Shown here: piece by piece, positions 4,886-23,536 of the stretch
Position numbering within the stretch: the stretch's first letter is position 1
How the letters are laid out: the number at the start of each line of letters is the position of its first letter
IMG/VR virus record: IMGVR_UViG_3300027836_000006
Origin: a virus
Taxonomy: Duplodnaviria > Heunggongvirae > Uroviricota > Caudoviricetes
Reading direction: 5' to 3' (one strand)
Length of the DNA: 64,000 nt
The notes under the pieces: generated by a model
What the model was told of the DNA's origin: nothing
The model's database searches: none
Seen by the model: only the letters and a program-made list of their open reading frames with translations
Program-made: the position numbers and the translations under genes

Positions 4886-5641
4886 ATGAGAATTTGTATT
4901 ATTGGGCACCCCCGTTCGCGAAGTACTTACCTACTTAATGTAATTGCGGACTATTTCAAAATACCTGAAATCCCACACCACCAAATTAAAAATGTGTATA
5001 ACGTACTCCCAGTGGAGTGTTATCACTCATCGCAATGGGAACCAATTTGGGATCCTAACTTCCCTACATCTATTAAAGAAGAATTTTTAATCAAGTTCAA
5101 CGAGTTCCAGTCTAAGATAAAAAATAAAGCTAGTTTTATTATCAAAGTTCACCCATCGCAGTTAGCTTACTTTCCAGCAAGCGGTCAGCTAATAGATTTT
5201 GACTTGTTTGGTTTTCAACAATACAATCAAATTTACTTTACTGTACGTAAGAATCACATTGATGCAATTTGTAGTTACTTCATTGCTAACAAAACAGACA
5301 AGTGGCACTACGGCCGTGGCGACAAACCTATGGCTATTGAAGCGCAACCTATGTCTAATAATATTGCTGTTATGATTTATATTTGGCACGACTTGATAAG
5401 TCAAGAGCTAAAGAAGTACCTAGACAATAAAAATATAGCATGGAGTGAAATCTATTACGAAGACATGACTGATTACGTAAAAGACCATTATCCAACAGGA
5501 TTAGCTAACACTATAGAAACTGGGTACGACTATAAACAACTTATAACCAACTACGACGAGTTGACTGACACATATAATATACTTAAAGATAAAGTTACAG
5601 CATTGTTTTACGAACATAATCCGGATTTGAAGAATGTTTAA
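4886..5641 (+). CDS. sulfotransferase (PAPS-dependent, Sulfotransfer_3-like)
   Basis: N-terminal 5'-PSB loop IIGHPRSRSTYLLNVI, compared with the consensus IVGmPRSGTTLL. Confidence 0.6.
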   Translation: MRICIIGHPRSRSTYLLNVIADYFKIPEIPHHQIKNVYNVLPVECYHSSQWEPIWDPNFPTSIKEEFLIKFNEFQSKIKNKASFIIKVHPSQLAYFPASGQLIDFDLFGFQQYNQIYFTVRKNHIDAICSYFIANKTDKWHYGRGDKPMAIEAQPMSNNIAVMIYIWHDLISQELKKYLDNKNIAWSEIYYEDMTDYVKDHYPTGLANTIETGYDYKQLITNYDELTDTYNILKDKVTALFYEHNPDLKNV

Positions 5642-6731
5642 ATTTAGCGAGCTAAAACAATTACACTTAGAAATAACAAACAACTGCCAAGCCAGTTGTC
5701 CTATGTGTGCGAGGAATGTTCGCGGGGGTGTTGATAATCCGCTGTTGACTATTAACAACTGGACCTTAGATACATTTAAAATAATCGTATCTCCAGAAGT
5801 ACTATCACAAATCGATGTGTTTTATTTTTGCGGTAACTTTGGAGATCCAATACTAAACAATGAATTGATAGACATGTGCGAGTATGCTGTTAGCGTTGAT
5901 CCAACAGTTACTATTAACATACACACAAATGGCGGAGCCCGTAATGTCGATTGGTGGATAAAGTTAGCAAAGACATTGCCAGTAAATCATCGTGTAGTGT
6001 TTGCCATTGACGGCTTAGAAGATACTCATTCTATCTATCGCATCGGTACATCATTTAATAAAGTAATAGAAAATGCTCGAGCATTTATCAATGCCGGTGG
6101 TAAAGCAGAGTGGGCATTTATAAGATTTAAGCACAACGAACATCAAGTAAATGATGTAAGACAGATGGCAACTGAGCTAGGGTTTGAAAATTTTACTATG
6201 AAAGATAGCTCACGCTTCTTTGATAGCGAGAAATATGCTGTATTAAACAAACAAGGATCTGTAATTTATAATTTAGAGCCTTCGACGTACAGCGAAATTA
6301 AATTTATTAGTACAGACATTATTAAACAACATAAGAAATTAGTAGCCGAAAGTGAAATACAATGTCAGGCATTGGATTTAAAAGAAGTATATATAGATGC
6401 GTTTGGTAGGATTTTTCCGTGTTGTTGGATTGCTAGTACACCATATACTTCCTTCGACGAGGACATTAGATTTGCTCCAGTGCGTTATCAAATGCTAGAC
6501 GAATACAATGAACTGATTAACGCATTAGGCGGGATAGATAAATTAGATGCTACTCAGCATACAATTAAAGATATTGTTGATTCGCCGGAGTATCAATCAG
6601 TGTGGTACAAGTTTTGGGCTGAGAAGAAATTAACTGTATGTGCTAGAGCTTGTGGTGTTCTTAAGACGCCAGTATTTTCAAAACCTTCAGAGCAATATAC
6701 TAGTAAAGAAATACTTCACCAGCGTCCGTAA
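5634..6731 (+). CDS. radical SAM enzyme, family A (paralog of 19678..20757)
   Basis: CxxxCxxC motif in ITNNCQASCPMC. FCGNFGDP is GGEP-like. Shared block NARAFI(N/A)AGG...HNEHQV. C-terminal CC...C cluster. Confidence 0.7.
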   Translation: MFKFSELKQLHLEITNNCQASCPMCARNVRGGVDNPLLTINNWTLDTFKIIVSPEVLSQIDVFYFCGNFGDPILNNELIDMCEYAVSVDPTVTINIHTNGGARNVDWWIKLAKTLPVNHRVVFAIDGLEDTHSIYRIGTSFNKVIENARAFINAGGKAEWAFIRFKHNEHQVNDVRQMATELGFENFTMKDSSRFFDSEKYAVLNKQGSVIYNLEPSTYSEIKFISTDIIKQHKKLVAESEIQCQALDLKEVYIDAFGRIFPCCWIASTPYTSFDEDIRFAPVRYQMLDEYNELINALGGIDKLDATQHTIKDIVDSPEYQSVWYKFWAEKKLTVCARACGVLKTPVFSKPSEQYTSKEILHQRP

Positions 6732-7270
6732 GTTTCAAGTTGATTCAAAAATACAACTGGGTTTAATTTCCAAAACGTTTGTTCGTGCCCTCTATATATC
6801 ATTGCACAATGTTTGGATAAAGCACCAGTCTCAACAAGCGCAGGACAATAAATCTTATGTACCAGGCGTTGACTAGCAACTGGGGATTCATTGGTTGAAA
6901 TGTACATGTTGCTATCAACACCACACCACTCAATACATGCTGGTATAAAAAATTGTGCTGTTGCGTTTTGGTGTTGTTGTATTGTTCTTCCTCTAGCACG
7001 TAATGTTGATATAGGAAGTCTATCAGTGAACACACACGTTCTCGCACATATACGATAAGCATTCTCACCCAACTCAGGTAGGCTATGCGCTGCAACACTA
7101 CCTACAGCTTCATCATTATAATATAAAATCCATACTTGGCTTTTAGTTTCTTTGCGGAAACTATCTACTAGAATCTTTTGATTAGCGTTGTTTTCAAAGC
7201 CACGGCTTGCCGCACTATCGTAAAAGGATGTTAAGTCTAGCTCTTGTGTCCACGGAACTAGTTTATACAT
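6716..7270 (-). CDS. hypothetical protein (184 aa)
   Basis: ORF convergent with 5634..6731, overlapping it by 16 nt. It is the first gene of a minus-strand run of four. Confidence 0.45.
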   Translation of the reverse strand: MYKLVPWTQELDLTSFYDSAASRGFENNANQKILVDSFRKETKSQVWILYYNDEAVGSVAAHSLPELGENAYRICARTCVFTDRLPISTLRARGRTIQQHQNATAQFFIPACIEWCGVDSNMYISTNESPVASQRLVHKIYCPALVETGALSKHCAMIYRGHEQTFWKLNPVVFLNQLETYGRW

Positions 7271-8037
7271 TATATTCCAATCTTTTTCTTAAACTCTTCA
7301 GTGAAGTGACCTTCTATATTAAAAGTTAATGTCGCATACGGCAACGTCTTAGTTAGATTACCGTGCCAGTCGTGATAGTTAAATGTAGCAATATGCCCTT
7401 CTACAGGAATACACTGTACTACGTTACCAGCGTCGTCAAAATCGTATAGATTCATTTCACGCTCTTTATCAAATCTAAACCATAGCACATCATGAGGTTT
7501 TTCAAGTTGTTCAAAAGTTAACACACCTTCCTCGAATGGATAGTAGTTAAAATCTCTATGGCAAGCCTGAGGCATGTAATGGTCTATATAAAAGAAGGAT
7601 ACTTGTTTTATTTCTTTAAACGGCCAAGTTTTAACCCATTGTTTAATATCTTCGTCAACCCAATCTTTAAACTGGCCAGTACCGTAGTTAAACAAGTGCA
7701 TTGTTCTGTAAGGACTGAATACTTTATGTTGTAATTGTAGATATCGCATGAGTCCATATCTATCGTTATTATCTTCAAAATACGCAATGCGTTCTTTTTC
7801 TTTATCTGTGCCGTTTTGTTTTAAATCGTGTAATACATAATATGCTAACTTAGCCATTTTAAATGCGGGCTTGTTTAGATCTTCAAAGTTAATACCGGCA
7901 GCAGTATTCGATTCGCTATGTTGCGGCCAGTTTTTAGCAAAGAAGAAATAAAAGTCATCCTTCTTATCCAGTAACTCATTAATGTTAAGATACTGTTCTA
8001 AATTCATAAACGGTTTGCCGTTAGCTAATTTTAGCAT
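7270..8037 (-). CDS. hypothetical protein with a cupin-like HxD...H signature (paralog of 18164..18943)
   Basis: CHRD...H and HDWH elements. The C-terminus GHFTEEFKKKIGI matches GKFTEEFRQRVGI of the 18164 gene. Confidence 0.4.
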   Translation of the reverse strand: MLKLANGKPFMNLEQYLNINELLDKKDDFYFFFAKNWPQHSESNTAAGINFEDLNKPAFKMAKLAYYVLHDLKQNGTDKEKERIAYFEDNNDRYGLMRYLQLQHKVFSPYRTMHLFNYGTGQFKDWVDEDIKQWVKTWPFKEIKQVSFFYIDHYMPQACHRDFNYYPFEEGVLTFEQLEKPHDVLWFRFDKEREMNLYDFDDAGNVVQCIPVEGHIATFNYHDWHGNLTKTLPYATLTFNIEGHFTEEFKKKIGI

Positions 8038-8938
8038 TGTTGCTCTCTAAATATCTTAGTAAAGGTGATAACCCAAGATTCTTAACACCAGATGTTGCCA
8101 TGTGAATAGCATCTGTTGGACTCAGATTAAAATCTTTACAAATTTTGTTGTAATGTTGTTCGTGTGTATTCCACAAATGATCAGCTGGCACATTATCTAA
8201 GAAATAATTACCTATTGCTACACACATGGTATTTATTTGGAGGTAGTCGTTGAGTATTGTAATAGGATCTTCGTACATTACATTAGACCACCGTACTCCA
8301 ATACGATTCCATCCAGCTAGTCCGTACCCTTTACTTAGACTTGAAGAAAAACTCCATATAGCTGGATGTGTTAAATCTAAATCAATATTGCGACACGCTG
8401 TGATCCATGCTCCGTCAATATGTACTGGTATTTTTAATTCTAAGCAACGATTTAAAATTTCATTCATTTGCGGATGTACTTTACCTATCCTAGCAAACGG
8501 AACAGAAATAATTAAATGCTTACGTGGCTCTAGCGTGTCAATTGTTTTAGGAATCAACTTAGGGTTAATCAGTGTATGATATCTGTATTCATCCTGTAGT
8601 ACTTGAACATTTTGTGTAGCATGTAGTGTATCCATATAGTGGGCAACACCCAGACAAATATCAGCACGTTTAAACTTGTTGAAACCTCTAATTGAATTTA
8701 ACTTAGATTGTTCTAACCGTTGTCTAAATGTATTCTTAAACTTTTCAAATATAGGACTAGTAACTTCGTTAGTTACATCAGCCGCAGTAAATGAACTATC
8801 TAAAAAATCTAATTTAACTTTATTAGTCCTAACGTTTTCCATCAACTGCTCGTGTAGCGAATCAATAAACGGGTGGCACTTAACTGTTTGTAGATAATTG
8901 TCTGAATAGTCAGGCGCTGGTAAAAATATGTTACTCAT
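8021..8938 (-). CDS. PLP-dependent aminotransferase-fold protein (class I/II-like, short)
   Basis: SSLSKGYGLAGWNRIG matches the SxSKxxGxxGxRxG PLP-lysine motif. It is preceded by HIDGAW (DEAY-like) and ISVPFA. Confidence 0.6.
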   Translation of the reverse strand: MSNIFLPAPDYSDNYLQTVKCHPFIDSLHEQLMENVRTNKVKLDFLDSSFTAADVTNEVTSPIFEKFKNTFRQRLEQSKLNSIRGFNKFKRADICLGVAHYMDTLHATQNVQVLQDEYRYHTLINPKLIPKTIDTLEPRKHLIISVPFARIGKVHPQMNEILNRCLELKIPVHIDGAWITACRNIDLDLTHPAIWSFSSSLSKGYGLAGWNRIGVRWSNVMYEDPITILNDYLQINTMCVAIGNYFLDNVPADHLWNTHEQHYNKICKDFNLSPTDAIHMATSGVKNLGLSPLLRYLESNNAKIS

Positions 8939-9620
8939 AGTTTACCTTAAAAAACAGGCCAGCTAAGTTTTTTATATGATCAAAATGCTGATTGTCAACT
9001 GTAAAATAAATTCCAGTATCATCAAATCTAAAATTTGCTATCTGCCCTTCTTTGCTTTTATAATTTAGCCACGGACTATATATCTGGTCAAAGTTATATC
9101 TAAAAATATCAGCAGGAATGTTGTTAGGTGTAATTCTAATATTAACAGGGTTATCAATGTTACCATGCAACAACAACTGTCTTATCACTAATTGATATCG
9201 AACATGCGATCCAAAATTTATTGCTGAATGTACTCGGCCAGCATCCATGTTCCACCAAGTGTAATCTTTTTCTGTAGAGTGAAGTTTGTGTGTATCCAAA
9301 TCAACTAAAAAACAGTTGTTACCCGATAAGTTTAAGTGCCACCTATCATCTATGTCAGCATGTAGTGTATAGCAAGTTTCCTGATCTAATTTCATTAACC
9401 GTGCTTCACCTTTTTCAAACGGCAATGTATCCAATACTCTTTGCCAAACTGTATTCTTATATTCGTCTTTGATTTGCCAAGCATCGTAAAAGAAATTACC
9501 AGTTGGCTGATTTAATATTATTCTGCGCTCACCGCCTGGAAACTGCGACAAGTTCATTATTTGGGCAAATGCTTCGTCAAATAGTTCTTTCGGCAATTGA
9601 AATTGTGTCTTAGTTAACAT
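8931..9620 (-). CDS. hypothetical protein; possible cupin/2OG-oxygenase-like (HADIDD...VHSAINFG)
   Basis: 229-aa ORF. Its start codon lies inside the left arm of the 14-bp inverted repeat at 9618-9631. Confidence 0.4.
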   Translation of the reverse strand: MLTKTQFQLPKELFDEAFAQIMNLSQFPGGERRIILNQPTGNFFYDAWQIKDEYKNTVWQRVLDTLPFEKGEARLMKLDQETCYTLHADIDDRWHLNLSGNNCFLVDLDTHKLHSTEKDYTWWNMDAGRVHSAINFGSHVRYQLVIRQLLLHGNIDNPVNIRITPNNIPADIFRYNFDQIYSPWLNYKSKEGQIANFRFDDTGIYFTVDNQHFDHIKNLAGLFFKVNYE

Positions 9621-9664
9621 AGAAATATTTATGTGCTACTATAACTATGGTAAATATTTCTATG
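9618..9664. promoter_or_regulatory. perfect 14-bp inverted repeat (19-nt spacer) spanning two divergent start codons; candidate operator
   Basis: catagaaatattta (9618-9631) is the exact reverse complement of taaatatttctatg (9651-9664). The left arm contains the CAT start of the minus gene and the right arm contains the ATG at 9662. Confidence 0.5.
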
Positions 9665-10519
9665 TTAAATACTCGCATTGCCACATCGTACACTACTGAA
9701 TGGTTACAAACAGATAGACCTAGTCCGTTGGACGACAATCAAATTGAGCAGTTAATACAAGATGTATTGTGTGGGAAGCTAGATAAGGATATTACTGATA
9801 ACGTTTATACTAGTTTTAAACAAGAGACAACGAATTGGATTTTTAACTCAAAATTAAATACCTTAACAGGGTTTGATAGTTTTAATCGTGTTGATATTAT
9901 AAACGGATGTACACAGTTTATAGATAATTTGTATATGCAAGGGCCTGTACAAGTATTGCGAGGCGATTACAGATACCATGAAAGATTAGAATTAGCGTAT
10001 GTAAAAGATGTGGGCTCGCTAATTCCAGACATTCCTTTAATTATAGCAATGCCGTTCCCTAGCATTGGTGCTCCACATCAGGATATGGAGGAGATTTTAC
10101 ATGAGTGTAAAATTAAAAACATTGCAGTACATATTGACGGTGCTTGGATTAGTTGTTGCCGTGACATTACTTTTGACTTTAGCCATGTGGCTATTAGATC
10201 CGTTGGCATCAGTCTTAGCAAAGGTCTTGGTCTCGGGTGGAACAGGATAGGATTACGTTGGACCAAAGATAGCAAGGCAGATTCGATTACAATAATGAAC
10301 GATTTCAAAATGAACAATCGTGCGCTGGCAATGATTGGATTGCATTTTATTCGTAACTTGCCAACGGACTACTTGTGGTTGACACACGGCGATAGATATT
10401 ATACAATATGTAAAGACTTCGGCTTGACTCCCACTAACAGTATATATTTGGCACTACAAAATGGACAGCCTGTTGGAGTCAGTCCACTGATAAGGTATTT
10501 GGAAAATGAATCAAGTTAG
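9647..10519 (+). CDS. PLP-dependent aminotransferase-fold protein (paralog of 8021..8938); the start may instead be the ATG at 9662
   Basis: SLSKGLGLGWNRIG and HIDGAW. The ATG at 9662 mirrors the divergent gene's start within the inverted repeat. Confidence 0.6.
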   Translation: MVNISMLNTRIATSYTTEWLQTDRPSPLDDNQIEQLIQDVLCGKLDKDITDNVYTSFKQETTNWIFNSKLNTLTGFDSFNRVDIINGCTQFIDNLYMQGPVQVLRGDYRYHERLELAYVKDVGSLIPDIPLIIAMPFPSIGAPHQDMEEILHECKIKNIAVHIDGAWISCCRDITFDFSHVAIRSVGISLSKGLGLGWNRIGLRWTKDSKADSITIMNDFKMNNRALAMIGLHFIRNLPTDYLWLTHGDRYYTICKDFGLTPTNSIYLALQNGQPVGVSPLIRYLENESS

Positions 10520-11225
10520 CATACCGTTTGATAAGACGTGGACAGATGTTGCTGTAAGTCTAAGCGGTGGCGCAGATAGTGCCTTACTAGCCTACATGGT
10601 GTGCGAGCTTGCTAAAGAACATAATGTCACAGTACACATTATTAATCATGTGCGTATGTGGAAAACACGCCCGTGGCAACAACATGATGCTGATCGAGTT
10701 TACAATTGGTTATTCCAGCGTTTCTATCATACAACATTTAGACGGCATACTAACTTCATTGCCCCAGACATAGAATACGGTAATATAGGACCCAATCTAA
10801 CTGATGAGTATGGCAAGAAGGTAAGTGGTGATAATATACAACAACGTGCCTATGCTGAATTTATTTGCCATAAACATAATGTAAGTGCTTATTTTAATGC
10901 AGTAACACGTAATCCTAGGCAAGCAATGTTTAACGGTATGCTTGAACGTGATTTAGAACCAACCGAAGAAAATAAACATTTAGAATACATGATTCATATG
11001 GGTCGTGTTGCCAGTCATCCTTTTCGATTCGTAGATAAATCGTGGGTACTAGCACAATATAAAAAATTAGAAATTATGGATTTGTTTGAGCTGACAAGAA
11101 GTTGTGAAGGCGAATTCAAAGAAATTAACTACGCAACATATACACCTGGTCAATACGTACCAGTATGCGGGGAATGTTTTTGGTGTAAAGAAAGAGATTG
11201 GGCTATAGCATGTCAAGACTCGTAA
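10506..11225 (+). CDS. PP-loop ATP pyrophosphatase, QueC-like
   Basis: SLSGGADSA matches the SGGxDS PP-loop. The C-terminal Cys cluster CGECFWC resembles the QueC zinc site. 239 aa. Confidence 0.6.
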   Translation: MNQVSIPFDKTWTDVAVSLSGGADSALLAYMVCELAKEHNVTVHIINHVRMWKTRPWQQHDADRVYNWLFQRFYHTTFRRHTNFIAPDIEYGNIGPNLTDEYGKKVSGDNIQQRAYAEFICHKHNVSAYFNAVTRNPRQAMFNGMLERDLEPTEENKHLEYMIHMGRVASHPFRFVDKSWVLAQYKKLEIMDLFELTRSCEGEFKEINYATYTPGQYVPVCGECFWCKERDWAIACQDS

Positions 11226-11839
11226 CGTTTGGATGTTCTTATACCTATGGCAAGGGATTAGAAGATTGCCAGGATTGGCCATTACTACATAAAAGTATGC
11301 ACAGTTCTAAGCCAAGTCAGTTAGGTTGGCCAAATCAACTAAGTGACAAGTTAGGTGTAGAGCTAGTGAACAAGTCTTACCCAGGATCAAGTAATTTAGA
11401 AATACTGTATGAGATACTACAATTTGATTTTAAACAAGATGATATAGTAGTTATAATGTGGTCTCACTACTTACGTGATATGCTGTTCACACGATTCTTC
11501 AAATGGATATTTTTAAGACGTAGGTTAGGTGCTTGGAAGAATACAGGTGTAGCAAAGAAATGGGTGGAGCAGATGAGTGAGCGAGATTACTCTATGCGTA
11601 CATGGATTTACCTACAACACGCTAGTCTATACTTAAACAGTAAAGGTATAAAATATATACACTACCCTGCGGCACCACACGAGTTACGTGAATACGAATT
11701 TCCAAGAATCCATGTAGACAATTTACACATGGATGGTATAGAATGGATTGACAATGCGTTAGATGGTAGTCATCCTGGACCGGCAACACATGCTAAATTA
11801 ACGGATAAGATTTTTAATATTTTAAATGAATCAAAGTAA
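11210..11839 (+). CDS. hypothetical protein, possibly an SGNH/GDSL-like hydrolase fold
   Basis: N-terminal TFGCSYTYG is GDS(L)-like but with Cys in place of Asp. Start moved to the ATG at 11210; the ORF track gives 11198. Confidence 0.35.
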   Translation: MSRLVTFGCSYTYGKGLEDCQDWPLLHKSMHSSKPSQLGWPNQLSDKLGVELVNKSYPGSSNLEILYEILQFDFKQDDIVVIMWSHYLRDMLFTRFFKWIFLRRRLGAWKNTGVAKKWVEQMSERDYSMRTWIYLQHASLYLNSKGIKYIHYPAAPHELREYEFPRIHVDNLHMDGIEWIDNALDGSHPGPATHAKLTDKIFNILNESK

Positions 11840-16982: not shown

Positions 16983-17623
16983 AGTTGTTTCTTAATGTTG
17001 TCTATTAGTTGTTGGTCATCTGTAGGGATCCACGATAACACTTCGTCAATATTTTCTACCGCTTGCCAGCTAGTAGTTGGACCTAGCTCCATCAACGCTT
17101 CTGTGTTAGTCCAATCCCAGTTGTTGATTAATTTTCCGGCTCCTGACCAATCGCTGATCAAATCATCAAAATCTATTCTTATAACTCTTCCAAAATCAAA
17201 AGTATCTGCTTGCTCGTATACTGCTTTTTCCCAGCACTTATAATTCCAATAAGCTAACATAAACTGTTCTTTGTTAAATGCTAGATTTTTAATTACATAG
17301 TCTTTACCAGGATGTGATTTATTAGTGGTATTGTAGGAACCATTGCTCAATAGCCAAGCGGCAAAGTCCTTTCGGGATACTAGCAACAAACACCACTCGC
17401 TATGATCCTTGAGTTCTTCTTGTAGTTTCTTGACCTTAGTAGCATTAAAGAATGTAAACACACTATGGCTAGCATCATTAAACTGTTGCCATTCGTGTCT
17501 TTCGTAGATTCCTCTATCAATGCCTAAGGCAGTTGGAGAGTCCGCTTTAAGACTATTAAAAATACAATTGAACGTACTAGTACTAGCCGTTCTTCCAAGG
17601 GTAAACAAAATAAACTTATTCAT
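16979..17623 (-). CDS. sulfotransferase-like protein
   Basis: N-terminal FTLGRTASTSTF is PSB-loop-like. About 214 aa. It heads the minus-strand run sulfotransferase, family-B radical SAM, family-C radical SAM. Confidence 0.45.
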   Translation of the reverse strand: MNKFILFTLGRTASTSTFNCIFNSLKADSPTALGIDRGIYERHEWQQFNDASHSVFTFFNATKVKKLQEELKDHSEWCLLLVSRKDFAAWLLSNGSYNTTNKSHPGKDYVIKNLAFNKEQFMLAYWNYKCWEKAVYEQADTFDFGRVIRIDFDDLISDWSGAGKLINNWDWTNTEALMELGPTTSWQAVENIDEVLSWIPTDDQQLIDNIKKQL

Positions 17624-17662
17624 ATAATTAATTAGCCTTTAAACTGCACACTAAATATTTTT

Positions 17663-18178
17663 ATGACTATAAAATACTTGGGCAACTATCCAAATTGGGT
17701 GAATCCACATCATCTCAAAATCATTTTGGAAAGTGAAGGCGATAAACGTACTGCATATAAAACTGAGAAAGAGATAGAGAAACAAGAACAAGTATCTATA
17801 TGGTCGTCACTAGGGCATGAGCTTAAAGGCGCAGAATGGTTTATGTATTACTACGGGCACTTAGGTATGTCTGCTGTGACTGACTTACAAATACCAATAG
17901 ATATAGACGGGCCGTTTAACTGGTGGTACTCTAAAATAAATCCTGGATCAGTATTCCCATTACACGTAGATACGTTTGATGTAACTAGCAACAAGACACG
18001 CAGACTTTGGATCCCTATGCAAGATTATCAGCCTGGCCACATCTTTATATATGAAGGTAAAATGTTGGATGATTATCGTGCTGGAGATGTTTACGAGTTT
18101 GAAAATCCTAAGGCATGGCACGGTGCTGCCAACATTGGATTTGAACCAAAGATTAGTTTACAATTAGTAATTCGCTAA
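17663..18178 (+). CDS. hypothetical protein, cupin-like (LHVDT...WHGAAN)
   Basis: HxD...H spacing typical of a 2-His-1-carboxylate oxygenase. Confidence 0.35.
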   Translation: MTIKYLGNYPNWVNPHHLKIILESEGDKRTAYKTEKEIEKQEQVSIWSSLGHELKGAEWFMYYYGHLGMSAVTDLQIPIDIDGPFNWWYSKINPGSVFPLHVDTFDVTSNKTRRLWIPMQDYQPGHIFIYEGKMLDDYRAGDVYEFENPKAWHGAANIGFEPKISLQLVIR

Positions 18179-18943
18179 GTGAGCAATGCCAACACGTTGC
18201 CTAAACTCTTCGGTAAACTTTCCATCTATTCTAATACTAAAAGTTTGTACGTTTGAACATCCACCGTTGTGCCAGTCCTGGTCGTTGAAAAAGATAGCAT
18301 AAGATGTTGTTGTGACTTTAGTATCTGTTTCAGAATCCCATATATAGAAGTCCCTGTCTAATCGTGTGCGTAAGTGTATGAACTCGTGTCTGTGATCAAA
18401 ATAATCAGTTTCATTTGGATAAATTAAATCTCTATGTAAAGCAGTCTGCCCATCGTGTTCTGCTTTAAAGATAATTATTCTTCCTATATGATCAAATACT
18501 GTGCCTTGTAATTTTTCAATCCACTGTTTAAATTCAGGAAAATATTCAGCGTCAGGTGTCCATGCTTTTTCTTCGAAACGTGATTCCCAACCGCCTTCTT
18601 CAGTTTTAAGAAAAATAAACTGATACGGATCATAAGCGCCTAGTGTTAATTTTAAGAACAATACAAATTCATCACGATTATCCCATTCGCCAATTTCTTT
18701 TCCTAATCTTCTAATCTCGTGATCTTCTGGCAGGGCAAAGTATTCATCTACTGCTTGGAATGTTGGTTTAAAGTTAAGCTCGTAAGCATCGTTAAAGCCA
18801 CCTGGTCTAACAATGTTGCCTTCTTTCTTGTGTTTGGATCGTACAATACCCTTACAAATTTTGTAATGGAGATCTAGCAAGCCTTGTATATCAAGGTAAG
18901 GATCTAAATCAATGTAGGGTTGAGAATTTATTCCGCGGATCAT
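18164..18943 (-). CDS. hypothetical protein, cupin/hydroxylase-like (paralog of 7270..8037)
   Basis: ALHRD...DHRHEFIH. Shares its C-terminal block with the 7270 gene. Confidence 0.4.
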   Translation of the reverse strand: MIRGINSQPYIDLDPYLDIQGLLDLHYKICKGIVRSKHKKEGNIVRPGGFNDAYELNFKPTFQAVDEYFALPEDHEIRRLGKEIGEWDNRDEFVLFLKLTLGAYDPYQFIFLKTEEGGWESRFEEKAWTPDAEYFPEFKQWIEKLQGTVFDHIGRIIIFKAEHDGQTALHRDLIYPNETDYFDHRHEFIHLRTRLDRDFYIWDSETDTKVTTTSYAIFFNDQDWHNGGCSNVQTFSIRIDGKFTEEFRQRVGIAHLANY

Positions 18944-18986
18944 AATAAAGGCTAATTAAGTAATACTAGTAGTTATCAGAAATCAT

Positions 18987-19694
18987 ATGACAAATTTAAA
19001 AAATTGGAACCATTATTACAACTTAGAAGGCACTGAGCAAGTTCGTGCCAATTTGGTATATACTCCGTATGTTAGTCCAGACAAGAAAACATTTTGTATG
19101 AGCTTTAACCGTGAAGAAGGATACCACATTTATGTACATGAGAATTTTAAATGGACAGACGAACTGCTATCAGACCGTTTTAACAGAGAACTGCTATTCT
19201 ATGCTCGAGCATCCAAAGTTGTGCCAACATTAGATCTAGTTGACGTAGATACAGCAAACAGACGAATATTTTTAAAATGGCACGGTGATGATTTTTATAT
19301 GCAAGGCTTAACAGCCAATGGCTACGATAACGTACTACCTAATTGGCAAGAGCAATGGACTAATCTTATTACTACTATGTGGGACACTAACATTTTGAAA
19401 TGTAGTTTACATCCAAATAGTTGGGTTGCAGTTGACGGTGTTCTAACGCCATTCAACTGGTTCTTTTGCTTTGACAAAGCTGAGACTGGAATTACCATAC
19501 GAAGTTTGTTATTACAAATAAGCGACAGCCGACAGGATAAACTAATAGAAGTGCTGAACAGCGCAGGCTTAGATATCGATAAACCATACGCAAGTGTTGA
19601 TTTACAAAAAGTTGCGTTAGAGAGTTTTAAAAGCAATTACCCAGAAGAATTAATCAACAACCTTATAAAGAAATATAATGACCTTCTATCATAA
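18987..19694 (+). CDS. hypothetical protein (235 aa)
   Basis: ORF overlaps the next gene by 17 nt (19678-19694); no motif recognised. Confidence 0.45.
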   Translation: MTNLKNWNHYYNLEGTEQVRANLVYTPYVSPDKKTFCMSFNREEGYHIYVHENFKWTDELLSDRFNRELLFYARASKVVPTLDLVDVDTANRRIFLKWHGDDFYMQGLTANGYDNVLPNWQEQWTNLITTMWDTNILKCSLHPNSWVAVDGVLTPFNWFFCFDKAETGITIRSLLLQISDSRQDKLIEVLNSAGLDIDKPYASVDLQKVALESFKSNYPEELINNLIKKYNDLLS

Positions 19695-20757
19695 AATTAG
19701 AGAAATCGAAGTAGAGAATAGCGGTATATGTAATGCCGCTTGCCCGCAGTGTATTCGTGAAATTAAACCAGGAGATCATTCTTGGTTTGAGGAAGGCTAC
19801 TTACAAGCAGATGTGTTTGATAGAATACCATCTACTGTTTACGAGAATTTAGAAATATTACGATTTGCTGGATCTATAGGCGATCCGTGTGCCGCTCCAA
19901 ACTTTATTGAGGTAGTCAAAAAAGTCCGTGCCAAAGGTAAATTTAAAATTAACGTAAGCACAAACGGCGGTATGAAAAGTCCTGATTGGTGGACTAGGCT
20001 TGCCCACGCACTAGGGCCTGATGACGAAGTACAATTTGCGTTAGACGGATTAGAAGATACTAACAACATATATCGTGTAAATGTAAGTTGGAAGAAGGCG
20101 ATGGAAAATGCTCGAGCATTTATTGCCGCAGGCGGTACTGCGTTATGGCAATTTATTGTGTTTCAACATAACGAACATCAAGTTGAAGATGGACGTACAC
20201 TTGCTGAGCAAATGGGATTTAAGAAATTCATAGTTAAACCTAGTCATAGATTTTTAATGGATGACATCATGGGTGTACAGCGTTACGGCACTGGCGGGGT
20301 ACTTATACAACCCCCAGGACAGAAAGAGATGATACACAAAGTAATGTTCCAACCTAAAGTTGTTAAAGTCGATGATTTATTAAAGAATTCGAACAATAGT
20401 TGTATTAAGTGTTATGCTAAAGAGCATCAAGATGTTTATATAGATTTTACAGGTCATGTGTTTCCTTGTTGTTTTATGGCTTCAAACTTTTGGGCACAGA
20501 AACACGTATCAGTTCCAGATGGTTGGAAACAGTTATGGAACGATGCCGGCGGTGATTTAATAGACTTACACAAACAAGACTGGGATACTATTGTACAAGG
20601 CGAATTTTTTAACCAAGTTGAGAAACGATGGGACAAGGATTACAACAATGGTCGCTTGTTAATATGTTCTGGAGTGTGTTCTTCCTTTGAAGGAAGATTT
20701 AATGACCCTGCCGAATTTGGCAAGTTAGCTACTACGGAATTTAAACAGTCCCAATAA
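19678..20757 (+). CDS. radical SAM enzyme, family A
   Basis: GICNAACPQC and FAGSIGDP. Shared NARAFIAAGG...HNEHQV block. C-terminal CCF...C...C. Confidence 0.7.
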   Translation: MTFYHKIREIEVENSGICNAACPQCIREIKPGDHSWFEEGYLQADVFDRIPSTVYENLEILRFAGSIGDPCAAPNFIEVVKKVRAKGKFKINVSTNGGMKSPDWWTRLAHALGPDDEVQFALDGLEDTNNIYRVNVSWKKAMENARAFIAAGGTALWQFIVFQHNEHQVEDGRTLAEQMGFKKFIVKPSHRFLMDDIMGVQRYGTGGVLIQPPGQKEMIHKVMFQPKVVKVDDLLKNSNNSCIKCYAKEHQDVYIDFTGHVFPCCFMASNFWAQKHVSVPDGWKQLWNDAGGDLIDLHKQDWDTIVQGEFFNQVEKRWDKDYNNGRLLICSGVCSSFEGRFNDPAEFGKLATTEFKQSQ

Positions 20758-21334
20758 TCATATAGCGGGTGTAAAGTGGCAATTCCAATTCACCAGCCCA
20801 CTTTACAGTACCGAGATTACATTGTTGTTTAAACTCATCTAAACTGTTGGCAATTCTTATATGTTCAGGTATGTTATAGTTGTTACTTTGTAATACAAAT
20901 AATGTGTTATGCGGCATGCCACTTAACCACAAGTCGTATTGGTCCTGTGTAATATGTTCACAGCTAGTGTTTATAACTACATCAGCATCACTACGGATAG
21001 CACACATATCAGCAGTAACAGCACGAAACTTGCCGTATATCTCCTCTGCTTTATTCATCATATTAGCAATAGGCTCACATGCCGGATCAATGTCTACACT
21101 GCGAATACTAGTAACTGGCACATCGCTTTGGAACAGCATACTAGCAAGTACACCATTCCAGCCGCCGTGTATGTCCACCGTAACAAACTTATTGACATGT
21201 TTGCGTAATTGTTTACACAACCAATCTTTGCTTTTCATCTGCCCTGCCCAGAAACAATCTAATGTTCGCATTGGGTCAGGACTTTGCCTTACGGCTTGCA
21301 TCCAATAGTGAAAGTGATCTAAATTAATATTCAA
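20741..21334 (-). CDS. SAM-dependent methyltransferase-like protein
   Basis: Class-I methyltransferase motif order: VDIHGGWNG (motif I), SVDIDP (acidic post-I), ADVVINT (motif II). Confidence 0.45.
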   Translation of the reverse strand: MNINLDHFHYWMQAVRQSPDPMRTLDCFWAGQMKSKDWLCKQLRKHVNKFVTVDIHGGWNGVLASMLFQSDVPVTSIRSVDIDPACEPIANMMNKAEEIYGKFRAVTADMCAIRSDADVVINTSCEHITQDQYDLWLSGMPHNTLFVLQSNNYNIPEHIRIANSLDEFKQQCNLGTVKWAGELELPLYTRYMIIGTV

Positions 21335-21531
21335 TTACGTCCCCATTTAATTCGATCCCATACTCGTTCATGAATAAAGTATAGTACGGTATTTGTAATT
21401 AATTGTATACTTGCTATACTACCAGCAACAACAAAATTTCCAGATATTAAATAACTAATTCCAAACGTAGCACCACTACCTGTTATACGCCAGGTAATGG
21501 TTTTTACTAAGCTACGGCTGGGCTTATCCAT
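21331..21531 (-). CDS. small membrane protein (66 aa), DUF2061-like
   Basis: Two predicted transmembrane helices. From memory (not verified), the LYFIHERVWDRIKW motif resembles DUF2061, a family I recall seeing next to sulfate-activation genes. Confidence 0.4.
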   Translation of the reverse strand: MDKPSRSLVKTITWRITGSGATFGISYLISGNFVVAGSIASIQLITNTVLYFIHERVWDRIKWGRN

Positions 21532-22391
21532 TATTTCAAACCTAGTTCCTTGCGGATTTTTGTAGCAGAGATAGAGTGTGTAGCGTCATCAAATGTTTCT
21601 TGTTCGATTTTATAACCTACATCTCGACCATAGGTAATGTTTACAATGTTGGGTACAACTTGTATTTCATACTGTCCTTGGAATAGCGGATCTAAGTCAC
21701 GTTTAATATAACTCTTAACTTGATCTATAGCAAACGGGTTGCTTCCTTGCCAGCCTTGGCAATCACGTATTTGAATAACTACTTGACCTGTTTTGGCAAT
21801 AGAACGTTCAAATAATTTACGATGGCCTTCATGCCAAGGTTGCCACCTACCTAACATTTGTACCGTCTCTTTTTGCCAATCAAATGTAGGACGACGTTTA
21901 TTTTCTAAAATGTGCTGGCCCACAAACTCGACCCACTTTTCAGCATTTTGTTCGATTATCCTAAAATCATATTGCTCGGGTGGAACGAATGCTTTGTTAG
22001 TATCGTCAAAGCGGCCAGCGTCGATTGTGTCGATCCAGATAGTCCAGTCGGCTTTAAAGTTGTTACGCATTTCAACTAGCGGTGCTACAAAATCACAGAT
22101 AACAAAATCACCTGTACAGTTGATAGCAAAATCAAACATTCTGATACTTTGACGAATGCGCCCTTCACGGCTAAAATCCCAGTCGTTGAATCTTTTACGA
22201 ACATCATCGGCATTGAACCAATCCACTCCTACTTTCAACATGTCAGGGCCCGGGATGCCTTCATAATTTAACAACCTATTTGGATTTACTTTATATAAAT
22301 CCCCATTTTCTTCTATGTATTTTTTAAGTCGTTCAGCAAAATAGGTTTTGCCCGAACCAGGTAATCCCATAATTAAGATTCTTTTAGCCAT
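21531..22391 (-). CDS. PAPS-synthase-like fusion: N-terminal APS kinase-like P-loop domain plus C-terminal minimal HxxH sulfurylase/nucleotidyltransferase domain
   Basis: GLPGSGKTYFA Walker A. ADDVRKRF...DWDFSREGRIRQSIR compares with the CysC block LDGDNVRHGL...DLGFSDADRKENIRRV. C-terminal QPWHEGHRKL compares with the ATP-sulfurylase QTRNPMHRAHREL. The protein ends ...SATKIRKEL. Confidence 0.55.
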   Translation of the reverse strand: MAKRILIMGLPGSGKTYFAERLKKYIEENGDLYKVNPNRLLNYEGIPGPDMLKVGVDWFNADDVRKRFNDWDFSREGRIRQSIRMFDFAINCTGDFVICDFVAPLVEMRNNFKADWTIWIDTIDAGRFDDTNKAFVPPEQYDFRIIEQNAEKWVEFVGQHILENKRRPTFDWQKETVQMLGRWQPWHEGHRKLFERSIAKTGQVVIQIRDCQGWQGSNPFAIDQVKSYIKRDLDPLFQGQYEIQVVPNIVNITYGRDVGYKIEQETFDDATHSISATKIRKELGLK

Positions 22392-23362
22392 TTTATTTCC
22401 TTTGGTATCTTACTGTCAGCACTACTGACACATGTATTAGTTATACATTCTTGCGGGCTGTCAAATAATTTAAAGTTCGAAAGTGTACCTAATGGTTGGT
22501 CGTGACAACTATAACTACGTTTTACTTCCGTTCCTCTAATTATAACACTTTGGTATCCAGCGTTACAATTCCACCCACTAAACTTATTGAATCCAAATGC
22601 GTTAAATCGCTCGGCTTGATCAAATAAGTGTTCTGTTCCATCTGCTTCGTATAATGCTATTTGATAAAGTTCCTCACCATTAGCACGTTGCGGAAATCCT
22701 TCACGCATCTTGTGTATCATATCATCAGTATAACCCTCAACAACCGCACTCGCTGTCGGATCACTTTGAGGCTTTAAAGTAACGTTGATTCCACGGTTGT
22801 GAAAACGTTCCATGCGTTCATAGAGTTCGTAGAACTTTTCTGGCACCATAACTTGATTGATTGTAACGTGTACTAGCTCGTATTGTAATTGTAAACACTT
22901 GTCGCCGAACTCTTGTTCCTTGGCAAACTCATCGTGGAAGCTGGCCGTAATACTACGGCGTTGTAATAGTTCAGTATTCTTACACCAAGTGTTCCACCAT
23001 TTGCTTCCCGGTGACAAATTGGTAGTCATGTGTATACTTTGGTAGGTACTTTCCTTTTCGTCCAAATGTTTAACTAAGTCTGGCAATTGTTTATAAGCAG
23101 TAGGCTCACCTCCGCTGAACGACCAATGGAACTGGTTAAACCCATTAGCTCGTGCTTGACGCTTAATCTCGTCTACAGTAGATTTATACACTTCAAGCGG
23201 CTGGTGATCCAATTTGTCGCTACGGGCATATGGCCAACAATAGCTACAACTATAATTACAGAATCTACCCAAAATCCAACTGGTAGAAAATAATGGTTTG
23301 GCTAGCATTGTGCGTTGCCCAAACCGTACAATATTTTGGAAAGGAATGGTTGAAAAGCTCAT
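22373..23362 (-). CDS. radical SAM enzyme, family C
   Basis: CNYSCSYC, FSGGEP, and a C-terminal GWNCNAG...C...C motif. Confidence 0.7.
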   Translation of the reverse strand: MSFSTIPFQNIVRFGQRTMLAKPLFSTSWILGRFCNYSCSYCWPYARSDKLDHQPLEVYKSTVDEIKRQARANGFNQFHWSFSGGEPTAYKQLPDLVKHLDEKESTYQSIHMTTNLSPGSKWWNTWCKNTELLQRRSITASFHDEFAKEQEFGDKCLQLQYELVHVTINQVMVPEKFYELYERMERFHNRGINVTLKPQSDPTASAVVEGYTDDMIHKMREGFPQRANGEELYQIALYEADGTEHLFDQAERFNAFGFNKFSGWNCNAGYQSVIIRGTEVKRSYSCHDQPLGTLSNFKLFDSPQECITNTCVSSADSKIPKEIKWLKES

Positions 23363-23390
23363 TGACAGTATTTACAAATAAGTATATAAT
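23362..23390 (+). promoter_or_regulatory. consensus sigma70 promoter: TTGACA-N17-TATAAT
   Basis: TTGACA at 23362-23367, a 17-nt spacer, and TATAAT at 23385-23390. The predicted start site (~23397) coincides with the 5' end of the tRNA-like acceptor stem. Confidence 0.65.
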
Positions 23391-23396
23391 ACAATG

Positions 23397-23507
23397 GTAG
23401 ACGTGAGTGGAACATGGTATACCTCCTCCTAGTAGCTTCGGCGAACGGAGGGACAGGGCCTAGCCCATTGGGCGGCTTTGTAGGTTCGAATCCTACCGTC
23501 TACACCA
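23397..23507 (+). ncRNA. tRNA-like structured RNA (111 nt with encoded CCA); non-canonical, possibly a tRNA with an insertion or a viral tRNA-like element
   Basis: Perfect 7-bp acceptor stem GTAGACG/CGTCTAC. Discriminator A followed by CCA. T-arm GTAGG-TTCGAAT-CCTAC. Internal hairpins at 29-33/51-55 (UUCG-capped) and 60-82. I could not fold a canonical D-arm or anticodon arm. Confidence 0.45.
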
Positions 23508-23536
23508 TTTTTAACACAGGCACAGAAAGGCAGTTT

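Follow-up and report, generated by a model that had tools for sequence, protein, structure and literature searches.

The window analysed here is a 64-kb stretch of phage genome (IMG/VR record IMGVR_UViG_3300027836_000006, Caudoviricetes). Its positions 4886-23362 hold an accessory gene island, which the original prediction, made from the sequence alone, described as a self-contained pathway building a heavily modified and probably sulfated molecule. As our strongest statement, we propose that the island is a conserved, horizontally shared cassette of radical S-adenosylmethionine (SAM) tailoring enzymes, joined by a lineage-specific module of sulfotransferases and of genes for the supply of 3'-phosphoadenosine-5'-phosphosulfate (PAPS). 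The source of the window is an uncultured T4-like freshwater (lake) phage, remote from cultured phages.

Results

Organization and distribution of the island

The island contains 22 open reading frames (ORFs) of 171–473 aa and a further 66-aa ORF encoding a DUF2061 protein, reproducing the predicted count of 23 genes. The strands of these ORFs show seven switches of direction, not the four that had been claimed. The ORFs are tightly packed, with overlaps or intergenic gaps of 27–59 bp except at the DUF2061 slot. Coordinates are collected in Table 1, and island genes are referred to by their first position.

For comparison with cultured phages, we used a set of 50,697 GenBank phage records. A megablast search with the island returned no match in this set, and tblastn with the N-terminal-twitch (N-twitch) radical-SAM protein returned only matches of 21–28% identity, in RsoM2USA, Vibrio K566/K567 and one marine single-cell amplified virus contig. 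The absence of a counterpart from these records agrees with the earlier impression that the arrangement is unlike described phage systems.

Relatives are plentiful among uncultured viruses. The 15561 protein, an N-twitch radical-SAM enzyme, has 105 relatives in IMG/VR (57–83% identity, on contigs of up to 353 kb) and more than 5000 metagenomic homologs (on contigs of up to 387 kb). Related contigs attain 240–390 kb, and the T4 genes for neck, terminase, sheath and portal occur in relatives. Lake and marine metagenomes contain the cassette in abundance.

To assess modularity, every island protein was compared by tblastn with 83 fetched related viral loci (loci are numbered with the prefix L). 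The core genes, present in 31–83 of the 83 loci and in shuffled order, comprise the three radical-SAM families and the 20741, 9647, 10506, 8931, 17663 (often multi-copy), 18164 and 18987 genes. The three sulfotransferase candidates were found in 0, 4 and 6 of these loci, and the kinase fusion encoded by the 21531 gene in 4. The description of the island as a self-contained pathway was accordingly abandoned: a conserved radical-SAM core carries a rare, lineage-specific sulfation add-on, and in most of the related loci fetched neither sulfotransferases nor the fusion are present. Searches of the island with Pfam and with a glycosyltransferase family 2 (GT2) profile recognized no gene for a glycosyltransferase, a precursor peptide or a DNA-transferase. 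With about half of the island ORFs lacking a Pfam match, completeness of the predicted pathway is not demonstrable.

Related islands contain 6–12 radical-SAM genes each. Sister islands add further radical-SAM genes, including B12-binding ones, together with TauD, Asp_Arg_Hydrox and other 2-oxoglutarate (2OG) oxygenases, tryptophan halogenase, carbamoyltransferase, FkbM methyltransferases, class-I/II and class-III aminotransferases, nucleoside diphosphate (NDP)-sugar epimerase/dehydratase, UDP-glucose dehydrogenase, HAD and NifU. ThyX is present in one related island.

Radical-SAM enzymes

The prediction of seven radical-SAM genes in three paralogous families was confirmed by profiles, motifs and blastp. 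All seven proteins contain CxxxCxxC and additional Cys clusters. Five exceed the PF04055 cut-off of 29.5 bits (38.7–50.9), and two fall just below it (5634, 25.7 bits; 11826, 28.2 bits). By blastp, the proteins grouped into F1 (5634 and 19678), F2 (11826 and 15561) and F3 (13672, 14482 and 22373).

The F2 pair matched NCBIfam NF033640 ('twitch domain-containing radical SAM protein') over its full length and well above the cut-off of 170, and the remaining five proteins scored 32–43 bits, below this cut-off. Residues C32, C50, C51, C108 and C111 are invariant in this N-twitch family. The 11826 protein has an N-terminal SPASM-type domain (41.8 bits), and is 62–87% identical across the related viral loci examined. 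F2 shares CxxxCxxC and an auxiliary Cys cluster with BtrN-type dehydrogenases, anSME and maturases of peptides made on the ribosome and modified post-translationally (RiPPs), but the auxiliary domain is N-terminal here. We know of no characterized NF033640 member, and none was described in the literature found by searches on twitch-domain radical-SAM proteins and phage.

F1 and F3 fit no curated NCBIfam equivalog, their best scores being 37–55 bits against cut-offs of 180–380. The 5634 protein contains C18xxxC22xxC25, is 33% identical to 19678, and has W_rSAM_matur as its best NCBIfam match (53.8 bits). The neighbours of F1 and F2 in NCBIfam are mostly peptide maturases (PapB, ScmE/F, mycofactocin, PqqE, cyclophane formers). 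The F3 proteins gave weak full-length alignments to QueE, far below the cut-off. Within F3, 13672 and 22373 are 23% identical (E 3e-18). Homologs of 13672 were found in 77 loci (counted as best matches, among which paralogs may be included), and 22373 is the member best kept between phages and bacteria.

An eighth radical-SAM gene lies outside the island, at 39183, and encodes a distant F2 relative that aligned with 15561 over its full length (blastp E 5e-26). In its vicinity are genes for ClpP (34191-34811), a MazG-like PRA-PH protein (37260-37622) and, at 37615-38331, the membrane protein Bax1-I. Three relatives (L084-L086) have Bax1-I beside the cassette as well.

Other enzymes of the core

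The two predicted pyridoxal-5'-phosphate (PLP) fold-type-I paralogs, 9647 and 8021, were borne out by structure prediction, by 42% identity over 295 aa and by invariant motifs. A profile of the PLP family searched against the PDB gave only E ~0.25, to threonine aldolases, and structure prediction was therefore needed. Foldseek matched the 9647 model to the PDB more than 400 times at E ≤ 1e-3; of the 50 best-ranked matches listed, nearly all were PLP fold-type-I enzymes (aspartate aminotransferase, CobD, NifS/IscS, NtdA, ArnB). The family has invariant K192 (SLSKG) and D164 (HIDGAW). The 9647 protein has no Pfam match and was not placed in any specific aminotransferase family.

The 10506 protein had been read as a QueC-like PP-loop ATPase. 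The PP-loop ATPase part holds, with an SGGADS motif and, at the C-terminus, a QueC-like CxxCxxC (CGECFWC), but the similarity to QueC is below the curated cut-off: ATP_bind_3 was matched by 12 of 13 family members and QueC (PF06508) by 8 of 13 (best E 4.5e-4), all below the curated cut-offs. A weak similarity to NAD synthase was also seen.

The several HxD...H cupin-like proteins of the original prediction fall into two groups. For 8931 and 17663 the assignment could be sharpened to Fe(II)/2OG enzymes, but 7270 and 18164 are oxygenase-like by motif only. The 8931 family has invariant H87, D89, H131 and R141, and its profile matched Cpz10, the beta-hydroxylase of caprazamycin biosynthesis (PMC9814697), as well as L-proline cis-4-hydroxylase (4p7w, E 7.7e-5). 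The 8931 protein aligns with Cpz10 and the Asp/Asn beta-hydroxylases (PF05118) over the HxD...H...R core, but the window copy itself has no Pfam match. In contrast with the caprazamycin pathway, no further gene of that kind (such as those for the transaldolase LipK or UMP dioxygenase) was identified. The 17663 family is a remote relative: hhalign aligned its HxD and distal His with those of the 8931 family. Its invariant residues include H101, D103 and H153, it occurs in up to four copies per related locus, and its profile found no match in the PDB. In the family of the paralogs 7270 and 18164, H170, D172, R192 and H225 are invariant. The two proteins have no Pfam or PDB match, and their hhalign comparison with the AspH-like family was not significant.

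Three genes, 18987, 11198 and 6716, received calls that the original prediction did not contain. The 18987 protein has a protein-kinase fold whose catalytic residues are replaced: Ser stands in place of both the Asp and the Asn of the catalytic loop, and Asn in place of the Asp of the DFG motif. For further proteins we pooled 108 homologs from eleven unassigned families in a Pfam scan. Six members, presumably of the seven-member 11198 family, matched Lipase_GDSL (best E 4.8e-6). The predicted methyltransferase-like gene corresponds to 20741, and the evidence for its class is weak: Methyltransf_25 was matched by two members and Spermine_synth by one, at E ~0.015, all taken to belong to the 20741 family, and neither the window copy nor the family profile has a Pfam or PDB match. 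Homologs of 20741 occur in 75 viral loci (48–84% identity) and 16 bacterial loci (28–37%). A single member, probably of the 6716 family, matched FeeM (E 0.014); 6716 homologs were found in 14 viral loci (40–62% identity). A PHROGs search of ten unassigned island proteins gave nothing useful.

The APS-kinase-like fusion and DUF2061

The 21531 gene encodes a two-domain protein that had been called a PAPS-synthase-like fusion of adenosine-5'-phosphosulfate (APS) kinase and ATP sulfurylase. The N-terminal domain is APS-kinase-like, but the C-terminal domain is nearest to HxGH nucleotidyltransferases of the nicotinamide mononucleotide adenylyltransferase (NMNAT) type, not to ATP sulfurylase. The N-terminal domain scored 20.9 bits against APS_kinase (PF01583, cut-off 21.1), and this family is carried by most of the 120 fusion homologs listed (~80% identity) and by the 62%-identity copy in L169. 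Foldseek with the AlphaFold2 (AF2) model of the fusion gave human PAPSS1 (1x6v) and the APS kinases 2yvu, 7yq1, 8a8h, 3uie and 3cr7 as top matches. The model is modest, with a predicted local distance difference test (pLDDT) score of 61.6 overall and 70–88 in the N-terminal domain. The predicted fold did not discriminate between sulfurylase and NMNAT, the C-terminal domain being modelled at low confidence.

The profile of the C-terminal domain gave a NadM-type NMNAT as its best match (2qjt, E 8.4e-6), followed by the MJ0541 NMNAT and archaeal phosphopantetheine adenylyltransferase (PPAT). What it has in common with ATP sulfurylases is limited to the superfamily motifs HxGH and ISxTxxR, read from its sequence. 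The order of domains is the same as in human PAPSS1, with an APS-kinase-like domain followed by a domain of the HxGH nucleotidyltransferase superfamily. Compared with a bifunctional PAPS synthase, however, the C-terminal domain is short (~110 aa) and nearest to NadM-type NMNAT and PPAT rather than to PF01747. The fusion thus parallels PAPS synthase in architecture, with family membership failing on the sulfurylase domain. It may be a minimal sulfate adenylyltransferase, or else another adenylyl-X/3'-kinase pair resembling CoA synthase (PPAT plus dephospho-CoA kinase) or NadR; these are indistinguishable in silico.

Sulfate activation and transfer, as originally proposed, are plausible, since the fusion is accompanied by a sulfotransferase-type gene in five of five independent phage lineages (the window phage, L029/L037, L169/L170, L165/L166 and the Tara contig L167). 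The fusion is otherwise very common, with thousands of metagenomic homologs. The DUF2061 membrane protein predicted next to it was verified through a precomputed PF09834 match on an identical gene of public contigs, and it adjoins the kinase fusion in four of the five lineages. In L165-L167, the sulfation module lies beside fibre genes (Peptidase_S74, Lcl_C) and T4 neck genes, and in L165 also beside a GT2/Methyltransf_24 gene and a CTP_transf_like/MannoseP_isomer gene. No Pfam match for cysH/PAPS reductase was present in the precomputed gene tables of the fusion loci.

Sulfotransferase candidates

Among the three predicted sulfotransferases, 13073 was confirmed by its profile, and the calls for 4886 and 16979 are based on PAPS-binding motifs. 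Homologs of 13073 directly adjoin the kinase fusion and DUF2061 in L029 and L037.

The 4886 protein gave no Pfam, PHROG or PDB match, even through a profile of its 58-sequence family. In this alignment R10, R121 and S130 are the only invariant residues, and R12 is near-invariant. As these residues fall at PAPS-binding positions, in the 5'-phosphosulfate-binding (5'-PSB, GHPRSRST) and 3'-phosphate-binding (3'-PB, VRKNHIDAICS) motifs, 4886 is a probable sulfotransferase. A total of 108 representative homologs were found, yet none in the 83 related viral loci. The 16979 protein, without a Pfam, PHROG or PDB match, is a possible sulfotransferase. Its GRTASTS and SRKDxxxWLLS motifs are kept among three homologs, and a homolog of 49% identity shares an island with the kinase fusion and DUF2061 in L169 and L170. 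When IMG/VR was scanned with sequence patterns for 4886 and 16979, no relatives turned up. Comparison of the three candidates with one another by hhalign gave no match; the method also missed the relationship of two bona fide sulfotransferases and so had no power here.

A bacterial counterpart of the cassette

The N-twitch profile was run against 185,579 species genomes. The matches were mainly in metagenome-assembled genomes (MAGs) of Bdellovibrionota, whose proteins are the closest genomic homologs (44–52% identity) and lie on contigs of up to 3 Mb with housekeeping genes (MscL, DnaG, sigma-70). The same loci hold homologs of 22373 (49–53% identity), 5634, 20741, 9647 (24–36% identity) and 13672, and many N-twitch paralogs; the 22373 homologs usually adjoin N-twitch and F1 genes. 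Bdellovibrionota may be hosts of these phages or partners in gene exchange.

GT2 genes, mostly in pairs and often with overlapping ends, are interleaved with the cassette in seven loci (L095, L100, L102, L103, L105, L115 and L118). In the Bacteriovoracaceae operon of L100 (8048-19121), F1, N-twitch and F3 genes are followed by two GT2 genes, a PLP gene and three N-twitch genes. A one-strand operon in a marine gammaproteobacterial MAG (L125, 2069-17594) has nine radical-SAM genes, in the order NDP-sugar epimerase/dehydratase, 2OG oxygenase, 20741-like gene, eight radical-SAM genes, PNP_UDP_1 and a 22373-like radical-SAM gene. Its PNP_UDP_1 family phosphorylase/nucleosidase (15751-16305, + strand) would clear 5'-deoxyadenosine, an inhibitory by-product of radical-SAM enzymes. 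More broadly, in L087-L164 (Bdellovibrionota and a few other MAGs; for example L101/L120) there are clusters of 20–35 kb in which radical-SAM genes of the same families number up to nine or more. GT2 pairs, TSP_3-repeat proteins and B12-binding radical-SAM genes belong to these clusters too. Literature searches found no characterization of these bacterial clusters.

It had been anticipated that the gene set might turn out to be a known host lipopolysaccharide (LPS) or capsule locus. A homologous chromosomal cassette does stand beside GT2 genes, but these are not known LPS or capsule loci. The window does not qualify as a polysaccharide or LPS locus, as no GT2 gene was found in it (glycosyltransferase families other than GT2 being covered by Pfam on the island proteins only), and the bacterial counterparts have a part of the defining genes, namely GT2 pairs, NDP-sugar epimerase and SIS domains.

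Table 1. Genes of the island, in order of position, followed by other genes of the window. AF2, AlphaFold2; pTM, predicted template modelling score
Feature	Position	Strand	Evidence or remark
Probable sulfotransferase (motif level); accessory	4886-5641	+	GHPRSRST, VRKNHIDAICS
Radical-SAM F1, SPASM/twitch-like Cys-rich C-terminus	5634-6731	+	Radical_SAM 25.7 bits, weak SPASM match
184-aa protein, weakly GNAT/FeeM-like; semi-conserved	6716-7270	-	No Pfam match for window copy
Paralog of 18164-18943 with HxD...H, resembling oxygenases in motif only	7270-8037	-	26% identity, E 1e-14
PLP fold-type-I, paralog of 9647-10519	8021-8938	-	HIDGAW, SLSKG(Y/L)G shared
Fe(II)/2OG beta-hydroxylase, AspH/Cpz10 type; core gene	8931-9620	-	Cpz10 PDB 7v4f, E 1.7e-18
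Compact 290-aa PLP fold-type-I; core gene, also bacterial	9647-10519	+	AF2 pLDDT 83.6, pTM 0.83
PP-loop ATPase, distantly QueC/TilS-like	10506-11225	+	ATP_bind_3 19.9 bits, TilS_N 26 bits, both below cut-off
SGNH/GDSL-type hydrolase	11198-11839	+	Lipase_GDSL E 0.003 for window copy
Radical-SAM F2, N-terminal twitch; core gene	11826-13073	+	NF033640 323.7 bits (cut-off 170)
Sulfotransferase, Sulfotransfer_2; accessory	13073-13690	+	PF03567 39.1 bits (cut-off 22)
Radical-SAM F3, C-terminal Cys cluster; core gene	13672-14580	+	Radical_SAM 47.5 bits
Radical-SAM F3; core gene	14482-15564	-	Radical_SAM 50.9 bits; other F3 E 1e-10 to 4e-11
Radical-SAM F2, N-terminal twitch; cassette-tracing marker	15561-16982	-	NF033640 409.5 bits (cut-off 170)
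Possible sulfotransferase (motif level); accessory	16979-17623	-	GRTASTS, SRKDFAAWLLS
Double-stranded beta-helix hydroxylase related to 8931-9620; core gene	17663-18178	+	hhalign 92%, E 5.7e-7
HxD...H protein; core gene in phages	18164-18943	-	Homologs 40–73% identity, 31 loci
Protein-kinase fold, pseudokinase-like; core gene in phages	18987-19694	+	TTK/Mps1 kinase domain E 4.8e-8
Radical-SAM F1	19678-20757	+	Radical_SAM 38.7 bits, weak SPASM, W_rSAM_matur 55 bits
Methyltransferase-like (Rossmann); cassette-specific core, also bacterial	20741-21334	-	Weak pooled matches
DUF2061 small membrane protein, 66 aa	21331-21531	-	PF09834 on identical gene of L001, L002
Two-domain enzyme, APS-kinase-like P-loop kinase (~1-170) and short nucleotidyltransferase (176-286)	21531-22391	-	Profiles, Foldseek
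Radical-SAM F3	22373-23362	-	Radical_SAM 46.5 bits; 66–84% identity across related viral loci examined
rIIB	718-1530		T4-like context gene
Fibre gene, N-terminal Mtd_N (major tropism determinant) domain	3754-4827	+	Directly upstream of island
ATP-dependent DNA ligase	35650-36978		T4-like context gene
Eighth radical-SAM, outside island, distant F2	39183-40550	+	PHROG radical-SAM families; precomputed Radical_SAM match
Baseplate-wedge/fibre connector-like	60533-61576	+	T4 fibre-connector-like N-terminus

Phage context of the island

The placement of the island in a phage genome, as first proposed, is supported by three genes within the window, namely rIIB, a DNA ligase gene and that for a baseplate/fibre connector of the T4 type; fibre-like proteins are encoded there as well. 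No record of the GenBank phage set exceeds 34% identity to the ligase. A mis-binned bacterial LPS locus was ruled out, as T4-type genes flank the island on both sides. Directly upstream of the baseplate-wedge/fibre-connector-like gene is a single ORF of 3957 aa (48660-60533, + strand). It presumably encodes a giant protein of the fibres or of another structure, which makes it a candidate for the molecule that is decorated.

Just before the Mtd_N fibre gene lies an AAA_33 P-loop kinase gene (3156-3617, + strand; 62 bits), for which no homolog was found in the related loci. On the right-hand side, four genes (23537-23857, 23854-24255, 24658-25332 and 25307-26053) form a conserved anchor of the island in related phages. 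The first of these (+ strand) encodes a small secreted protein with a signal peptide and an HEVLH (HExxH-like) motif.

The RNA described as tRNA-like at 23397-23504 (+ strand) did not hold up as a tRNA gene: it scored 25.5 bits with the Rfam tRNA model against a threshold of 29, and gave no ARAGORN call. Its acceptor stem and T-arm are intact, with large insertions inside. No gene above threshold was found in the tRNA and Rfam scans. A perfect sigma-70 consensus promoter (TTGACA-17-TATAAT) is located upstream of this element, at 23362-23390, and an ORF at 23414-23857 runs through it, the true start of which is probably an internal Met ahead of the signal-peptide-like MKKALLVLLL. The T4 late promoter TATAAATA is not enriched (3 matches against 8.4 expected), and sigma-70-like and terminator-like sites in the island are not above the shuffled expectation.

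Further downstream are a PTPS/QueD-family gene (43828-44352, + strand) and a small CTP_transf_like nucleotidyltransferase gene (44501-44920). A connection of this pair with the chemistry of pterins or 7-deazapurines, or with the QueC-like ATPase of the island, is conceivable.

Discussion

A possible tailoring pathway for a sulfated carbohydrate

We tentatively favour, while giving it somewhat less than an even chance, the interpretation that the island is a tailoring pathway for a sulfated glycoconjugate or carbohydrate. The core (module A: six to seven radical-SAM enzymes, a PLP enzyme that is duplicated here, the PP-loop ATPase, the methyltransferase-like protein, the hydroxylases, the HxD...H pair and the degenerate kinase fold) would act as a tailoring assembly line, carrying out successive steps on one scaffold. 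The radical-SAM enzymes would perform C–H functionalization, epimerization or dehydrogenation; in further steps the scaffold would be hydroxylated, aminated with PLP as cofactor, and activated at a carboxylate at the expense of ATP. The scaffold would most likely be a sugar, sugar nucleotide or glycan, because the same cassette is interleaved with GT2 pairs in Bdellovibrionota chromosomes. In module B, which is specific to the lineage of the window phage, the fusion and DUF2061 would supply PAPS, and one proven and two probable sulfotransferases would attach sulfate to the product, probably on its hydroxyls. The finished molecule would probably reside on the virion fibres or on the envelope of the infected cell, altering adsorption or recognition. 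The sequences establish the gene families, their modular conservation, the association of the fusion with sulfotransferases and the linkage to GT2 in bacteria; what class of substrate is used, in which order the enzymes act, that the fusion makes PAPS, and where the product goes are inferred.

A carbohydrate is favoured by the linkage of the bacterial cassette to GT2 and NDP-sugar genes, by genes of sister islands for sugar-nucleotide and carbamoyl/methyl tailoring, and by the Sulfotransfer_2 assignment. Precedents point the same way. Carbohydrates or cyclitols are the substrates of twitch radical-SAM enzymes such as BtrN, and the Nod factors of rhizobia offer a case, NodH with NodPQ, in which a glycan sulfotransferase has a PAPS supply of its own; the fusion is likewise genetically linked to dedicated sulfotransferases. 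A surface destination is suggested by the position of the island after the Mtd_N fibre gene, and by the occurrence of the sulfation module beside fibre genes elsewhere.

Several observations argue against this interpretation. Two of the three sulfotransferase calls are based on motifs, the C-terminal domain of the fusion is poorly modelled (pLDDT below 50 in several segments), and no ATP-sulfurylase domain (PF01747, ~200 or more aa) aligned with its ~110 aa. A GT2 search of the window and of 1692 ORFs from 95 viral sources found none except in L165, which has the sulfation module alone, and no flippase or polymerase was seen in the island or the related viral sources. In the bacteria, GT2 genes number 28 among 1141 ORFs, in 14 of 78 loci, a raw count without a genome-wide control. 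The bacterial loci contain no homologs of the hydroxylases, HxD...H proteins, pseudokinase or sulfotransferases, so that the phage cassette may have been re-purposed. Finally, hydroxylases of the AspH, Cpz10 and prolyl-hydroxylase types and SPASM/twitch radical-SAM enzymes act more often on peptides, amino acids and nucleoside-amino-acid conjugates.

Alternative substrates

This last point leads to a reading that we consider rather unlikely, though it is the best placed of the alternatives: modification of a protein or peptide, either as decoration of fibres (hydroxylation followed by sulfation, together with cross-links or epimerization) or as RiPP maturation. The overwhelming share of peptide maturases among the NCBIfam neighbours of F1 and F2, and the type of the hydroxylases, would suit such a substrate, for which the dead kinase fold of 18987 could be a binding scaffold. 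The adjacency of the island and of the sulfation module to fibre genes also fits, and hydroxylation followed by sulfation of tail-collar/collagen-like proteins has been predicted by Iyer et al. 2010 (PMC2938197). Nevertheless, no collagen-like or repeat-rich substrate gene adjoins the island. Neither a conserved small ORF for a precursor nor a recognition element, a leader protease or an exporter came to light, in the course of an analysis that included no dedicated search for short peptides across the loci; the tight spacing of the island leaves no unassigned ORF slot besides that of DUF2061, and Pfam gave no match to a protease or transporter. In addition, the bacterial cassettes are interleaved with GT2 genes and not with peptide genes.

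We regard as improbable that the product is a diffusible secondary metabolite, resembling an aminoglycoside, aminocyclitol or nucleoside antibiotic, possibly sulfated, and produced in the course of infection to hold down competitors or to steer the host. The mixture of enzymes is reminiscent of nucleoside and aminoglycoside pathways (twitch radical-SAM, PLP, Cpz10-type hydroxylase, kinase/nucleotidyltransferase, sulfotransferase, and methyl- and acyl-transferase-like proteins). The tryptophan halogenase, carbamoyltransferase, TauD, Aminotran_3 and HAD genes of related islands echo the cyanophage 'halogenated amino-acid/sugar metabolite' cluster of Iyer et al. 2021 (PMC7824862). However, neither an exporter nor an enzyme that would form the scaffold (nonribosomal peptide synthetase, polyketide synthase, cyclitol synthase or glycosyltransferase) was found, it is not clear what a lytic T4-like phage would gain from such a compound, and the presence of the sulfation module beside structural genes elsewhere points to a target on the virion or cell surface.

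The probability is lower still for hypermodification of a nucleotide or DNA base, of the 7-deazapurine or thymidine type, as a means to evade host restriction. The island shares a QueC/TilS-like PP-loop ATPase, small radical-SAM enzymes, a PLP enzyme and a P-loop kinase with the 7-deazaguanine (FolE-QueD-QueE-QueC-DpdA) and thymidine (5-HMUDK, aGPT-Pplase) systems, and F3 aligns weakly with QueE. Thymidine hypermodification uses kinase, PLP and radical-SAM enzymes (PMC13458397, PMC11472151), and the substrate of Cpz10 is a uridine-amino-acid conjugate (PMC9814697). The ThyX gene of one related island and the PTPS/QueD-family and CTP_transf_like genes of the window (43828-44920) could also be brought in, the former of this pair lying 20 kb from the island. 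Against this, the similarities to QueC and QueE are far under the family cut-offs, the chromosomal copies in Bdellovibrionota are linked to GT2, and seven radical-SAM enzymes are far above the number in any known base-modification pathway and do not fit in type. Pfam listings, which were not supplemented by a dedicated profile search, contained no DpdA/TGT, aGPT-Pplase or dUMP/dCMP hydroxymethylase in the island or its neighbours, nor any FolE or thymidylate-synthase-type domain; of the phage genome, the window takes in 64 kb. A known 7-deazaguanine cluster was rejected, as its defining genes were not recognized.

An equally small probability attaches to there being no single pathway at all, but a collection of unrelated auxiliary metabolic genes, such as a cysC-like gene aiding assimilatory sulfate reduction of the host and radical-SAM genes with roles that have nothing to do with one another: the shuffled gene order between phages, the seven strand switches, the annotation of cysC from large lake phages as assimilatory sulfate reduction (bioRxiv 10.1101/2020.02.13.942896) and a T4-like environmental genome whose 12 radical-SAM genes were discussed only as a load of Fe-S proteins (PMC5332604) are consistent with it, but the same dozen families occur together, at identities that go down to 57%, in over 100 contigs of viruses and in part also in bacterial operons whose gene ends overlap, and the pairing of the fusion with sulfotransferases in all five lineages supplies the partner expected of it, a PAPS-consuming enzyme.

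Relation to described systems

The closest described parallels are in T4-like cyanophages, which carry tandem arrays of 2OG dioxygenases and halogenases (Syn9), a P-SSM2-like carbamoyltransferase/halogenase cluster and LPS-type clusters; the products of these tandem arrays and glycan- or metabolite-type clusters are uncharacterized (PMC2938197, PMC7824862, PMC3037559). Operons joining beta-hydroxylases, sulfotransferases and PAPS synthetases were the basis of the Iyer 2010 prediction (PMC2938197). Like the cyanophage islands, the island studied here is an accessory element of a T4-like myovirus, lies near structural and fibre genes, and is rich in Fe/2OG hydroxylases and cupin-like proteins. 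Its relatives also have the tryptophan halogenase, carbamoyltransferase, HAD and aminotransferases of the cyanophage clusters. In contrast to these clusters, it is dominated by seven radical-SAM enzymes of three families, which are absent there; it has its own APS-kinase-type module and sulfotransferases; and its core is common to Bdellovibrionota rather than cyanobacteria. Neither the cassette, nor its Bdellovibrionota counterpart, nor the module of fusion, sulfotransferase and DUF2061 is described in the phage literature cited here, and literature searches found no described function for the cassette or the N-twitch radical-SAM proteins.

Implications

The three radical-SAM families, with their PLP, PP-loop and Fe/2OG partners, represent untapped enzymology; radical-SAM enzymes carry out some of the most difficult reactions known in biology. 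The Bdellovibrionota operon with its GT2 partners offers a tractable bacterial route to the substrate. For viral ecology, the linkage of the APS-kinase fusion to sulfotransferases suggests that viral 'cysC', counted in surveys as assimilatory sulfur metabolism, more likely serves to furnish PAPS specifically for the sulfation of something the phage makes.

A more far-reaching possibility, which we hold to be unlikely, is that a large clade of uncultured phages and Bdellovibrionota share a multi-radical-SAM pathway that puts a hypermodified decoration, sulfated in the lineage of the phage studied here, on adhesive fibres or surface glycans, as a new determinant of host or prey recognition, with the fusion as a new minimal PAPS synthase. 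This idea draws on a task that T4-like jumbo phages and predatory Bdellovibrionota have in common, as both must recognize and breach Gram-negative envelopes. If it is true, radical-SAM chemistry on surface structures would be a new factor in deciding which hosts or prey are recognized.

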